The position numbers were made by a program. Source: a virus (taxonomy: Duplodnaviria > Heunggongvirae > Uroviricota > Caudoviricetes). Taken from it: DNA of 18,739 nt. How positions within the stretch are numbered: the stretch's first letter is position 1; every line of letters begins with the position of its first letter. The DNA is taken from IMG/VR virus record IMGVR_UViG_2648501730_000002, positions 1-18,739 of that record; one strand, given 5' to 3'. Positions 12,295-18,200 of the stretch are shown in pieces.

Positions 12295-15200
12295 TCATCC
12301 TCTCCGGATAAGGCACGGGCGTATTCTGCCAGTGTTTTCTTGTTGGTTGCTGCACCATCCTCTTCCTGCAGGCTCGCCAGCAGTGCACTGAGATCCAGCT
12401 GCCAGCGGGAAATACTGATGCGCAGCGCCGCCAGCGCATAAACGAAGCAGTCGAGCGCCTCATTGCGTCGCTTTTTGCTGTCCCACAGTATTTTTTTCCT
12501 GCCATCCACCCATTTTTCGACCTGCTCTTCAGCAGTCAGTTGCTGCGCTTCGGTAAGATCAAAAATATCCGGGTTATTCGGGAAGTGAACTGCACCGGGA
12601 AGCGGTTCATCCCCTTCCGGCGTCAGTGTGAAGCGGTTATAAATCTGCTCTTTCGCGGTATCCGTACCGATTTCGGTAAGGTAAACCCCGTTTTTGTTTC
12701 GCTTACGTGGCATGCTGGCCACCGGCTTTCCGTAGACGGATGCCCCTTTAATGGGGATCACCCGGAACAGCCCATGTTTTTTCGAGCGTTCATACACAAT
12801 GGTCGGGTCAATCCCGCCAGTATCCCAGCAGATACGGGATACCGACATTTCTGCACCATTCCGGCGGGTATAGGTTTTATTGATGGCCTCATCCACACGC
12901 AGCAGCGTCTGTTCATCGTCGTGGCGGCCCATAATAATCTGCCGGTCAATCAGCCAGCTTTCCTCACCCGGCCCCCATCCCCATACGCGCATTTCGTAGC
13001 GGTCCAGCTGGGAGTCGATACCGGCGGTCAGGTAAGCCACACGATCAGGAACGGGCGCTGAATAATACTCTTTCCGCTCTGCCATCACTTCAGCATCCGG
13101 ACGTTCGCCGATTTTCGCTTCCCACGTCTCACCGAGCGTGGTGTTCACGAAGGTTTTACGTTTTCCCGTATCCCCTTTCGTCTTCATCCAGTCTTTGACA
13201 ATCTGCACCCAGGTGGTGAACGGGCTGTACGCCGTCCAGATGTGAAAGGTCACACTGTCAGGCGGTTCAATCTCTTCACCGGATGACGAAAACCAGAGAA
13301 TGCCATCACGGGTCCAGATCCCGGTCTTTTCGCAGATATAACGGGCATCAGTAAAGTCCAGCTCCTGCTGGCGGATGACGCAGGCATTATGCTCGCAGAG
13401 ATAAAACACGCTGGAGGGGTCATCCGGCGTCCATTTGAGGCCAAACGGCGTCTCTTTGTCGCCAAATTTAAGATACTGCTCCTCCCCGCAGTGCGGGCAG
13501 GCAACATGAAAACGCATAAAATGCGGGGATTCACTGGCTGCACGCTCAATCTGGCAGGTGCCTCTCACTTTGGGCGTGGAGCCACGGATGGACTTTGGCC
13601 AGACCGAGCCTTCAATACGCTTGTCACCCAGGAACGTCGGAGAGCCTTCCTGTTCAATATCCTCATCAAAGGCAGCAAGTTCATCATAACCCGCCACATC
13701 AACCGACTTTTCACGGTAGTTTTTTGCCGCTTTACCGCCCAGGCACCAGAAGCCACGACCATTGGTGAAACGCTTCATAGTGAGCGTGTTATCCCGGTGC
13801 TTTTTGCCATACCACGGGGCCAGAGACAGCAGCGACGGAATATCGCGGATGGTAGGCTCGACGTGGGTTTTCATAAAGTTCTCGGCATCACCATCCGTCG
13901 GCAACCAGATAAGGGTGTTACGCTGCTTATGCTCTATGAAGTAAGCATAAACACCCAGCAGCATTTTTGAATAACCAACACGGGCAGACTTCACCACATT
14001 CACCTCGCGGATGTAGTCGCTGCCCATCGCATTCATGATAGCCCGCTGAAAGGGCAGTGTTTCCCAGCGCCCTTCCTGGTATGCGGATTCTTTCGGGAGA
14101 TAGTAATTGGCATCCGCCCATTCAACGGCAGTCTGTGGCTCCGGCCTGAACAGGGCTCGCAGCCCGGCGCGTACATCACGCCGCAGAATATCAATCTGAC
14201 TGTTCGATATATTCACTCAGCAACCCCGGTATCAGTTCATCCAGCGCGGCTGCTTTGTTCATGGCTTTGATAATATCCCGTTTCAGGAAATCAACATGTC
14301 GGTTTTCCAGTTCCGGAAAACGCCGCTGTACTGAGAGAGGGATCCCGTCAAGAATACTGGCAATTTCACCTGCGATCCGTGACAGCACGAAAGTACAGAA
14401 TGCGGTTTCCACCACTTCTGCGGAGTCTCTGGCATTCTTCAGCTCCTGGGCGTCAGCCTGCGCACGCGTAAGTCGATGGCGTTCGTACTCAATAGTCCCA
14501 GGCTGGAGATCTGCCTCGCTGGCAGCCCTGTAATCCTCAACCTCTTTACGGAGTTTTTCATTTTCGATATCAGCTTCCCTCTGCGCATACCACTGAATTG
14601 CCGTGGCGGTATCAAATACAGATTCAACGCCCTTACCACCTCCGGAGACGCAAGGGAGCCCCTGAGACTGCCAGCGTTCAATCGTTCGCGGATCCACGTT
14701 GAAAATTTCGGCAAGTTTCTTTTTATTAACCTTCATGAAACAGTCTCACAACAAATACAGGATCCGACATGAAAGTGCCCGAAAATGACTTTTTCAGGCG
14801 TTTTCATGTCGGACCTTTACGGATTCGATATTAGAAAAAACAAATAGTTATGTTCGAGAAGTACCGACATGATTTTCCCCGGAAAATTTTCATAAATAGC
14901 GAAAACCCGCGAGGTCGCCGCCCCGTAACGGCCCGGATCGCCGGAAAGGACCCGCGAAAACGATAATGATTATCAGTTGCAACAAAATCCAGTTTCTTCC
15001 ACCATCGCACCGGACCAGCGACCATGAGGGGACAACGCCGCGCTCCGTTAACGCGGTAAACCCCGGTGTGTATCGTTTTTGATTATCCCCGCACACTCGC
15101 GCAGAGGAGTCTCCCTGTCGGGCTGCGGTCTCTGTTAATACGGGAATACGGCGACAATACCGCGCATGGATAATAAGGTCGCTCAACACACTGGCTGTAA

Positions 15201-18200
15201 TGCAGCCGATACCATACGGCATTTAGCGGCATTCATCGTACACTCAACGGTTAGCTCTTCATTCGTGGCATTCACCTGAAAGGTCCGGGAGTGTAATTGC
15301 GTACATTTACCACTGAACGAACCTTCAACAAGAACACGACCACGCTGCAAAATACGGAACGGAATTGTTCCCTGAAAAGGCTTTACGGTTACCAGTAATT
15401 TCTTCATGCATTCTCCGGATAACAAAAATACTAGTTAATACACTGAGTACGGATATATTCCTGAAGCATTCTCAATGCAGCCTGGTCGCTGATGATTCCG
15501 TCTCTGATACCGAGAACGTTTCGTCCAGCAACCGGAGAGAGTTCGACGGCGGCATCATTGCCCACGCCGGAGGTGCCGGTGGCTTCACGCACGGTACCGG
15601 AGCAGGTGGCGTTGATCCGCAGGCGCTTACGACCAGCGGCAACATCAGCACGCAGAGTTTCATTTTCAGCTCTCGCATCGGCTAATTCCCTCGAGTATTT
15701 TGCATCGAGCGCAGCAACATCGCGCTGGCGCACCTGCATATCAGTAATGGTTGCGTTTGCCAGCTCCAGCTCTCTGGCTTTTTTATCGCGCTGCGCTTTG
15801 TAGGTGATGGCGTTATCGCGGTAATGATTCAGCCCCAGACTAAGCGCACCACAGACCACCAGCAGAATAACGGTAAACGCGGAAAGCATTCGGTTTATGC
15901 TCACCCCAGCAGCCCCGACGAAGATAACATCATCCAGCCCATGGAAAGAAAAAGAGCAACCAGCATTAGTGAAAATGAAATGCCGACGATTACACAGAGG
16001 ATCTTCGCCAGCATTATGAGTTTGTCTGACATGTTTAATCCTCTTCACGATTTCAACGCAATGACCAGTTTTGCCAGCCCATACAGCATCGGAGACACAG
16101 CAATACCGACCGCCACCCACTTAATAGCAAAAGCCTGTGCTCTGCTGATGTCATCAGTTACTGGCGCTTTCAGTTCAAGGCCGTTTTTCATAGTCAACCT
16201 CAACAGAATTCGTTTATACTTTTCCATGTTCTCCCTTGCCTTATCCAAGGTCAGAAACACAAAACCCCGCTTGCTGCCAACAAACGTGGTTTTTACTTTT
16301 ATTCACTTAGGTTTTGCCAGTTCGCAGGATTTCGTGTTATCCGTCCGCGTTGGCCAACGTCATTTTTCAGCAAAATATTCTGCTTATCTGTCGATACCCC
16401 AGCACGCCAGCGCGCTCTCCTGGTCACGACGGGATACCTGACCATAACAGTTATTTGAGCGGATACGGCAGTCTCTGCCACCGTCTTTAATCCACCAGCG
16501 AATCGCCTCGCATGCACCCCGGCGATCGCCTGCATTAATTCGTTTATAAAACGTCGACGGGAAACACTTACCGGGGCCAATGTTATACGGGCAGAATGAC
16601 GCGATCCCCGCTTTCTGGGGTTCAGTCAGTGGCACTTTGATGTTTTTCTCCACCCATGCCAGCGCCTTATCACGTTCGATGGCGTTAACCTGGTCGCATT
16701 TCTCCTTCGACAACTTCATGCCCGGGACGACAGGTTTACCATCCACCAGAATGGCACCGCGACAGATGGTCCAGATACCCGCGCCATCACGGTATGCCGT
16801 GGTGTGGTTACCTTCCTTTTCATCCAGAAACTGGTCGAGAATGTCAGGCGCAGGCGCACCAGCGGCAATCAGCGCCAGAACGGCAGCCGACAGGCCGTAT
16901 TTGATTTTGGTGTTCATGGATATTTATCAGGATTTATCGGTTCCGAATCCCTGGATATGTTAAGTCTTCAGCCCGCCAGTGGTGGGCACTGGTGTTTTAC
17001 CTGATGGCTGAAATATATCTGACAATTCCCGTCGAGGATTTAGCAATGTATAACGATGAACATAAATATACCGCCTGCATGCAGGCCATGAATGAACAAT
17101 TTAAATCAGCATTCCTTAAACTCATTCAGCAAAACCACGAAGCAGTAAAATCCATTCAGGCTGAGCCGTATGGACACCTCACACCACCAACTCTCGACAT
17201 TATGTCCAGAATATTAACACCAGCCATGCTTCTACGTCTGAAAGACAATATAAATGACTGGTTAAACGAAGAATTAAACTACCTTGAATGTGAGTGGGAT
17301 CATCATTACGCCAAATCACAAAAAGAACGCATCTTCCGTCGATTATCCGGCAACAGATAACGAGCCAGCTTATATACGTCCTTTAAGATAAGTCAGTCCT
17401 GGATGAAACCAGTAAGCCGGCACTTTTTTAAAGGGCGGATTATCAAAATCACGAAGAAGAGCCTCCCGCACAACTGCATCCTTGTCCGCACCACTGGCCA
17501 GCGCTTCAATCTCAGCAGCTACCTGCAGATATCCCATGCAACGACCAATGCGCTTCATTAGTCCCTGCTTTTTATTGTTCTTCAGGTAATCAATGGCAAA
17601 TTCAATGAGCGCCTCACTGTGCTGGTGCGATGCTGGTGTTACTTTTCCATCTTCACGGATCGTGATATTCCAGTCATCGCTTGTCACAATAAAAGATGGC
17701 CGATTATCCCCCCATTCCTGGTCTTTATCCGGTGCAGACGCAATAAAATAACGTTTATTGCCTTCCTCTCCGGCACTTTTAACTGTAATGGAGTACTTTT
17801 CTGACAATGCGGTCGGTAAAAACTTTTCCTGCAAAATCTTCGCAAAGGTCCTGCGAGCAATTTTGATGCAATCATCGTAAAACGCTGCTTCCTGCTCATC
17901 GCGGCGTTTTTTTTCATCTTCAGAAACCATCAGCACCGACAGTTTTTTATTCAGTTCAGTGATTTCATTTTCCAGGCAACTTATGCGCTGATTCATTTCT
18001 TCATGGTTCATCGTCTACTCTCCCCGCGCCGCCTTACGCCGGTCTTCTCTGATTTTGAAATACAGGTTCGTCAGGTACGTCAGCAGACCAAACAGCAGAC
18101 TCCCCAGCACGCCTATTGCCACCCACTGGGACGGAGAGACTTTGTCCAGCAGCTGCAGTAACCAGTATCCCGTCCCCACCGCTGACGTGGTGTATGACAC

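Follow-up and report, generated by a model that had tools for sequence, protein, structure and literature searches.

In bacteriophage lambda, polymerase modified by Q and starting from pR' reads S, R and Rz and then passes across the joined cos into Nu1. Directly after Rz, on the opposite strand, lies bor (lambda 46459-46752), which encodes an outer-membrane lipoprotein conferring serum resistance and which, by reading opposite to the late genes, escapes late-operon control. Here we describe the corresponding interval in an 18,739-nucleotide (nt) stretch of a lambdoid prophage (Caudoviricetes; IMG/VR record IMGVR_UViG_2648501730_000002, positions 1 to 18,739; hereafter the window), where the place of bor is taken by a 74-codon open reading frame (ORF), ORF74. 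The late genes of the window lie on the minus strand, and in the direction of transcription their order is holin ORF, lysozyme, Rz/Rz1, ORF74, cohesive-end sequence, Nu1 and terminase A. ORF74 is a real protein-coding gene for a folded protein, conserved and under constraint. Its product is probably a dispensable, late-made, cytoplasmic accessory binding module of family PHROG 2571, carried in an exchangeable late-operon cassette, and we hold this reading with moderate confidence.

ORF74 is a conserved protein-coding gene

The gene and its translation signal are as follows.

15183-15407, minus strand: ORF74, 74 codons plus TGA; stand-alone PHROG 2571 domain, identical to RefSeq WP_000735655.1
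15413-15416, minus strand: Shine-Dalgarno sequence GGAG of ORF74, 5-nt spacer to the ATG, as read from the sequence

Minus-strand translation of 15183-15407, beginning at the ATG at 15407-15405, gives the 74-residue product MKKLLVTVKPFQGTIPFRILQRGRVLVEGSFSGKCTQLHSRTFQVNATNEELTVECTMNAAKCRMVSAALQPVC. The Shine-Dalgarno sequence and its spacing are constant in 15 of 15 distinct upstream variants among relatives, in which it takes the form GGAG/GGAGG or one of the one-base variants GGGGG and GGAAG. ORF74 is codirectional with Rz, from the end of which it is separated by 24 nt, and 260 nt lie between it and the cohesive-end sequence cosN; in two relatives (L002 and L091) its start overlaps the Rz stop as ATGA. 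The initial annotation, made from the DNA alone, had described a real ORF codirectional with Rz and equipped with a good ribosome-binding site, and both the minus-strand translation and the GGAG at 5 nt agree with it. Because 55 ORFs of at least 30 amino acids (aa) overlap the 4.5-kb stretch of the window around ORF74, its length alone is not significant, and the case for a gene rests on conservation and constraint.

Both are found. A search of 5.8 billion proteins returned 66 homologues, from E. coli and a few Salmonella, every named one of which is labelled hypothetical or uncharacterised; the lack of conservation in relatives that the initial annotation had named as a ground for doubt is thus not seen. 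The homologues are mostly 68-79 aa long, some with an in-frame deletion of five residues. The 93 loci that were fetched comprise 33 distinct nucleotide versions, in all 33 of which the frame is open, and at least 10 of these versions encode an identical ORF74 protein. Insertions and deletions (indels) of 9 nt and 15 nt among the variants both preserve the frame. Pooled over ten diverged sequences, the ratio of non-synonymous to synonymous polymorphism (pN/pS) is 0.45 in the ORF74 frame; four other frames have values of 0.98-1.39. In the antisense frame with coinciding wobble positions it is 0.47, as expected for that geometry; since the plus strand opposite the ORF74 interval holds only a 37-aa and a 33-aa ORF, this antisense frame is not one continuous reading frame. 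The pairwise ratio of non-synonymous to synonymous substitution (dN/dS) relative to the window ORF74 lies between 0.07 and 0.58 for 21 of 22 comparisons in which both types of change occur.

The sole exception among these comparisons is the locus from O55:H7 CB9615 (L091:3001-3225), which differs from the window ORF74 by 16 non-synonymous and 4 synonymous changes (dN/dS 1.28). This excess of non-synonymous change may reflect a diversifying burst or a recombination patchwork.

An AlphaFold2 model of ORF74, built with a 23-sequence alignment, has a mean predicted local distance difference test score (pLDDT) of 90.2 and a predicted template-modelling score (pTM) of 0.76. The model is all-beta and features a seven-strand beta-sandwich with one short helix, which sets the predicted fold class as a small beta-sandwich. 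The first cysteine is residue 35, so there is no N-terminal lipobox; about six hydrophobic residues follow MKK, with no long hydrophobic stretch, and residues 2-8 are modelled as a strand of the sandwich (pLDDT 93). The earlier statement that signal peptide and lipobox are lacking is supported by these features, and the protein would be a soluble, cytoplasmic, single-domain seven-strand beta-sandwich. Residues conserved across the family are core and turn positions. The segment from about residue 57 to 66 is hypervariable and carries indels, and pN/pS is 0.61 for residues 56-74 compared with 0.39 for residues 1-55.

The Rz-to-cos interval compared with lambda

The features that define the interval, all on the minus strand, are listed here from the upstream end of the late transcript.

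15431-15889, minus strand: Rz (i-spanin), directly upstream of ORF74 (ORF list); 'lysis protein' WP_000947213.1 in the closest genomes
15472-15678, minus strand: Rz1 (o-spanin lipoprotein), embedded in Rz (ORF list); exact start codon uncertain
15051-15149, minus strand: non-coding segment of about 100 nt with 81% identity to lambda 46885-46981, just right of bor (blastn)
14912-14923, minus strand: cosN cohesive-end sequence GGGCGGCGACCT, an exact single match with 0.01 expected by chance
14191-14736, minus strand: Nu1, small subunit of terminase, following ORF74 as the next gene in the late transcript (ORF list; RefSeq annotation)

The identification of Rz1 is supported by a PF06085 (Rz1) match at the equivalent place in relative L088 and by Sakai ECs_1535, annotated as 'lipoprotein precursor', and that of Nu1 by PF07471 at the equivalent place in relatives. 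The flank of cosN is also lambda-like, window 14975-14934 matching lambda 48452-48492 in blastn.

In the blastn comparison, homology between the window and lambda breaks inside Rz at window 15548 (lambda 46313) and restarts at window 15149-15051 (lambda 46885-46981). These breakpoints bracket bor, so that ORF74 together with the last ~115 nt of Rz replaces the bor-containing lambda segment between the same two boundaries, and the placement of the ORF by the initial annotation in the Rz-to-cos slot where lambda has bor proves exact. The last ~115 nt of Rz therefore travel with ORF74, the lambda homology ending at 15548. The window lacks the p78/p79 region of lambda. The non-coding segment at 15051-15149 marks the right-hand boundary of the cassette, is common to bor- and ORF74-carrying phages and may be a recombination boundary for cassette exchange. 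Close relatives have in common the 3' end of Rz and some 190-240 nt downstream of ORF74, and their contexts, including packaging modules that differ among them, then diverge. The exchangeable cassette would accordingly be made up of the Rz 3' end, ORF74 and these ~190-240 nt, set at the junction of lysis and packaging genes in lambdoid prophages. DNA flanking ORF74 is matched by 398 phage records, 28 of which hold ORF74 itself. The gene is present or absent between otherwise homologous phage genomes, and lambda has bor within the same boundaries; within this shared pair of recombination boundaries, ORF74 behaves as the counterpart of bor that runs with the late genes.

In tblastn searches, no frame of 14700-15500 resembled lambda Bor, p78 or p79; the best match to Bor covered 16 residues, with an expectation value (E) of 0.23. 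On the basis of these searches, and of the presence of only 33-37-aa plus-strand ORFs in 14700-15500, an antisense remnant of bor was rejected. No Pfam family, the cold-shock domain included, matches ORF74 at E≤1, and the initial annotation was correct in finding no similarity to Bor or to cold-shock proteins. A structured RNA or small RNA (sRNA) was also rejected: the 201 nt after ORF74 fold no better than shuffled sequences (z=-0.04) and so show no excess RNA structure, and Rfam at E≤1 gave only sub-threshold microRNA noise near 14755-14820. The enterohaemorrhagic E. coli anti-sRNAs AgvB and AsxR sit 3' of pR' and not at the site of ORF74.

Late expression or expression from the prophage

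Its position between Rz and Nu1, in the sense orientation, places ORF74 inside the Q-dependent late transcript, so that it would be transcribed late. On this transcript, which starts at pR' and is antiterminated by Q, it would follow Rz as the next cistron and use its own conserved Shine-Dalgarno sequence for translation; the product would then appear late in the lytic cycle, alongside the lysis and virion proteins, rather than in the lysogen. We infer such late lytic expression as the default expectation from the placement, the conserved Shine-Dalgarno sequence and the occasional ATGA overlap.

The strongest alternative is that ORF74 is a lysogenic-conversion gene, or moron, expressed from its own promoter in the repressed prophage and conferring on the host, like bor, some trait of fitness or virulence. 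The term is used here in the sense of Hendrix and co-workers, for whom the criteria are an own promoter and terminator, distinct composition, expression in the prophage and presence or absence between phages. ORF74 occupies the exact slot of bor; the slot is variable, as the 28 ORF74-bearing records among 398 illustrate; the gene has a slightly lower guanine-plus-cytosine (GC) content than its flanks; and it is common in pathogenic E. coli lineages (O145, O157 Sakai Sp6, the enteropathogenic strain E2348/69 and the Shiga toxin (Stx) phages). Other observations weigh against it. A crude consensus scan found 0 sigma-70-like promoter sites in 14600-16000, although a weak or non-sigma-70 promoter inside Rz could escape it, and there is no terminator-like site between Rz and ORF74 nor between ORF74 and cos; the terminator-like sites detected, one inside ORF74 (15371-15356) and one beyond cos (14799-14777), are at chance level. 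The gene follows Rz by 24 nt, or overlaps its stop, in the sense orientation of the late operon; bor itself runs the opposite way and is thereby freed from late-operon control. Having no signal peptide, lipobox or transmembrane segment, the product is also not a surface protein like Bor or Lom. We regard a prophage-expressed moron as unlikely. The initial annotation had proposed a candidate lysogenic-conversion or accessory gene; its accessory character stands, while lysogenic conversion drew no positive support, no promoter-like site and no separating terminator having been found in the scan and the start overlapping the Rz stop in several relatives.

Distribution and genomic context of the family

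The initial annotation listed ORF74 as unrecognised, which does not hold: RefSeq and GenBank both carry the protein, labelled as hypothetical, and it is a member of PHROG 2571. The identical RefSeq "hypothetical protein", WP_000735655.1, is placed directly after the "lysis protein" Rz. In prophage Sp6 of strain Sakai (O157:H7), ECs_1536 has 98% DNA identity to ORF74 and likewise follows Rz/Rz1; it differs in that packaging downstream is of the HNH/TerS/TerL type and not of the lambda cos/Nu1/A type, and in nothing else of substance. The 225-nt gene is present in 1244 of 5426 complete E. coli genomes (23%), with up to six copies per genome, and the exact 74-aa protein occurs on at least 1000 contigs; carriers also include O145, O157 Sakai Sp6 and E2348/69. 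Phage records carrying it include ASU11, PPyecE_EH1910 and Stx1a-, Stx2a- and Stx2c-converting phages, and distant family members are found in phages mEp237 and HK225, from which it follows that the family is carried by viable phages.

ORF74 matches the PHROG 2571 hidden Markov model, a family of unknown function, over residues 1-73 (E=2.8e-28, 99.9 bits). A profile search of 1.84 billion cluster representatives gave 48 clusters; of the clusters listed, about half are represented by stand-alone 71-82-aa proteins and the others by truncated or longer forms, some of them fusions. The conserved family pattern is MKKL.VT ... F.V.Q.G..L.ED..SGK....Y.R.Y.V, and all ten distant relatives scanned match PHROG 2571. 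A scan of one genome per species with the close-family alignment found no relative. PADLOC assigned 0 families to ORF74, to a 286-aa homologue described below and to two distant members, so that no known anti-phage defence gene was indicated.

The ORF74 gene stands directly after Rz/Rz1 in most of the relatives examined from E. coli and Salmonella, whatever the packaging module. The exceptions are L086 and L087, where a 443-nt gap intervenes, and L092, which has a different lysis cassette. Downstream lie lambda-type Nu1/A in the window and in L085, L086 and L093, Terminase_2 and TerL with an HNH gene in L001, L091 and Sakai Sp6, and Terminase_4 and TerL in L088. Distant members (~30-45% identity; 72-82 aa) are found in the late regions of other lambdoid prophages, either between an upstream holin/DUF2570 lysis cassette and terminase (L095 and L096) or between a Q-like antiterminator and the holin (L097 and L101). 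The family is a resident of late-operon accessory positions and is not restricted to a single lysis system or a single type of virion.

This survey also bears on the possibility that ORF74 is a lysis accessory, acting in the cytoplasm to modulate the holin, endolysin or spanin pathway; its linkage to the Rz 3' end would then be accounted for. Its place immediately after Rz/Rz1 in most of the E. coli and Salmonella relatives examined and the cassette boundary inside Rz are in keeping with such a role, and distant members also adjoin lysis cassettes. However, the family occurs beside unrelated systems, namely Rz (PF03245), DUF2570, M15 endolysin and holins of classes 2_1, 3_3 and 8, and in L097 the gene lies upstream of the holin. 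Most phages with a near-identical Rz do without ORF74, which is thus not needed for spanin function, and spanins act in the envelope whereas ORF74 is predicted to be cytoplasmic. A lysis role appears doubtful, and we place it behind the moron.

In some phages a gene of PHROG 4280, encoding 68-72 aa with the pattern MFVE..LKADPDN..WVLGWAVVR..PWHL.GVYAT, directly follows the ORF74-family gene. It does so even after an 81-aa family member of ~30% identity, and it is absent from the window. The arrangement, also present in L087 and L096, suggests that the two families form a two-gene module in some phages. The loci are:

L085:3265-3471, PHROG 4280 gene
L086:3182-3397, PHROG 4280 gene
L093:3176-3391, PHROG 4280 gene
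L095:4341-4559, PHROG 4280 gene

ORF74 as a complete domain

The full-length form of PHROG 2571 is a 286-aa hypothetical protein of Escherichia phage PhiR46_1 (XSB42772.1), found also in YDC107_1. The PhiR46_1 gene resembles ORF74 in lying in the Rz-to-Nu1 interval and in the predicted beta-strand pattern of its product. ORF74 is 34% identical to this protein over 53 residues (101-153), and the alignment can be followed by eye to about residue 172. Its AlphaFold2 model is of low confidence (pLDDT 54, pTM 0.35) and too poor for a fold search; it shows a run of beta-strands over residues 100-169 flanked by helices and low-confidence linkers. The first and last residues of ORF74 coincide with the boundaries of this central beta domain (residues 100-169). 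ORF74 has its own start codon and Shine-Dalgarno sequence and has no counterpart of the helical ~100 aa at the N-terminus or of the ~115 aa at the C-terminus of the longer protein; no other part of that protein could be detected in the window. With 15 proteins the 286-aa form is rare, the stand-alone form being far commoner.

The coincidence of boundaries, the lack of any trace of the flanking parts and the prevalence of the stand-alone form together indicate that ORF74 is a mobile domain in its complete form, not the residue of a decayed gene. ORF74 is a complete single domain, and the disrupted-gene fragment that the initial annotation had considered is not what is found here. A decaying remnant of the 286-aa gene, or a conserved DNA element that is open by chance and has no protein function, is correspondingly improbable. 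In its favour, ORF74 covers only positions 100-172 of the 291 in the PHROG profile and does not have the full-length architecture, the 286-aa homologue occupies the same Rz-to-Nu1 interval, purifying selection is only moderate and one pair has a dN/dS above 1. Besides the domain boundaries and the missing N- and C-terminal traces, it is contradicted by the stand-alone 72-82-aa members, which are the common and most diverse form, by the conserved start codon and Shine-Dalgarno sequence, by the in-frame indels and by the confident fold as an isolated domain.

Mobility of the domain is further illustrated by fusions, in which the ORF74-like domain is N-terminal in P0083 (181 aa) and P0088 and C-terminal in P0091 (225 aa). 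The C-terminus of P0083 has 68% identity to the N-terminal ~50 residues of a 213-aa ORF of the window (LENEITELNKKLSVL..EDEKKRRDE..), so that two accessory genes of the window, ORF74 and the 213-aa ORF, occur fused elsewhere. Immediately downstream of P0091, on a short metagenomic contig, lies a 94-aa gene (L100:863-1147) with an Acb2_Tad1_hairpin domain, of the anti-CBASS/anti-Thoeris sponge family.

Structural similarity and candidate function

Foldseek searches with the ORF74 model gave best E values of 0.28 against the Protein Data Bank (PDB) and 0.075 against viral models, with none below 0.07. Carbohydrate-binding modules CBM35, CBM6 and CBM36, the LecB/PA-IIL lectin and the immunoglobulin (Ig)/FN3-like domains of lambda gpJ are alike in shape only, at 6-16% identity, and no conserved Ca2+- or sugar-binding residues were identified in ORF74. 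Three further candidates were rejected. An alpha-crystallin or small heat-shock protein was indicated by an hmmsearch of the PDB at E~0.1 over ~30 residues (alphaB-crystallin), and hhalign gave it a probability of 2.5% with an approximate alignment of the alpha-crystallin domain. The gpJ FNIII-A domain (PF24801) matched 4 of 21 members with a best E of 0.02, below threshold, and hhalign of the family profile against lambda J gave a probability of 0.2%. HYR_4C repeats, reached through many weak repeat matches in the giant repeat proteins P0094 and P0095, were taken as generic resemblance to Ig-like motifs.

Under the preferred reading of ORF74 as an accessory binding module, the conserved beta-scaffold would present the hypervariable loop at about residues 57-66 to a protein or glycan partner. 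Such a binding function is speculative; the hints for it are the variable, indel-bearing C-terminal third, the one pair with a dN/dS of 1.28, the fusions and, in one case, the Acb2/Tad1-type neighbour. Candidate roles would be in phage-host or phage-phage conflict, or in modulating events around lysis. A bolder version, which we think has only a small chance of being right, is that the PHROG 2571 domain represents a new class of small late phage effector that neutralises a factor of the host or of a rival phage. It would, for example, act as a binder or sponge against defence, or be set free at lysis as a lectin-like protein, with the loop setting specificity and the PHROG 4280 product as a partner in some phages. 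In that case an unrecognised conflict gene would be present in about a quarter of E. coli genomes, among them Stx-phage lysogens.

Several points weigh against the binding-module reading as a whole. Constraint on ORF74 is moderate only, at a pN/pS of 0.45. The predicted isoelectric point ranges from 5.0 to 9.7 among homologues, and cysteines and net charge are not conserved in the wider family, so that no shared chemistry is evident. NCBIfam gave no match, functional annotation is likewise absent from PHROGs and the PDB, and literature searches (including WP_000735655 and ECs1536) found no paper mentioning the gene. The GC content is 46.7% over ORF74 as against 52-60% in Rz and the cos-proximal DNA, a modest drop of a kind often seen for morons, and the limit of the promoter scan given above applies here as well.

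Ranked by weight, the alternatives run from the prophage-expressed moron through the lysis accessory and the non-functional remnant to a virion or morphogenesis accessory, such as an Ig/FN3-like decoration or tail-tip-related module. This last is the least probable of the four, since the profile comparison with lambda J failed as above and all Pfam matches are below threshold, the gene is never in a structural module and accompanies unrelated head and packaging types, and the structural likeness is at the generic beta-sandwich level.

Neighbouring genes in the window

The remaining late genes and ORFs around the lysis cluster are given below.

18380-18724, minus strand: ORF matching the C-terminal part of DUF6645 / PHROG 3591/143
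18015-18335, minus strand: holin ORF (ORF list)
17370-18011, minus strand: 213-aa ORF between holin and lysozyme, PHROG 1085/2091 (function unknown)
16992-17360, plus strand: 122-aa ORF between the 213-aa ORF and lysozyme, PHROG 1853 (function unknown)
16384-16917, minus strand: lysozyme (ORF list)
16045-16260, minus strand: 71-aa ORF between lysozyme and Rz, PHROG 1115 (function unknown)
12291-14216, minus strand: terminase A (ORF list)

The ORF at 18380-18724 corresponds to the end of a 'SASA family carbohydrate esterase' gene (9-O-acetyl-N-acetylneuraminic acid deacetylase, yjhS-like), which lies upstream of the holin in related prophages. The 122-aa ORF is inserted on the opposite strand within the lysis cluster, as would be expected of a moron with expression of its own. 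The 71-aa ORF has a hydrophobic C-terminal stretch; in the lysozyme-Rz interval of close relatives RefSeq lists shorter hypothetical proteins, of 60 and 43 aa.

Significance and comparison with Bor

ORF74 was already catalogued as a RefSeq hypothetical protein and in a PHROG, and an ordinary conserved hypothetical gene in a well-known lambdoid accessory slot will not surprise the specialist. What the analysis contributes is that the gene is real, constrained and confidently folded, that its domain also forms the centre of a larger protein from the same slot, and that it is an alternative to bor. Being very common (23% of complete E. coli genomes and Stx1a, Stx2a and Stx2c phages) and without an assigned function, it offers a clean target for knockout and interaction studies.

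Compared with lambda Bor (PF06291), ORF74 lies in the same interval, between the 3' end of Rz and the shared segment of ~100 bp, and both are dispensable cassette genes. The two differ in strand, have no sequence similarity, and ORF74 lacks the signal peptide and lipobox of Bor. Whereas bor is transcribed independently from the prophage, ORF74 is on the sense strand of the late operon.

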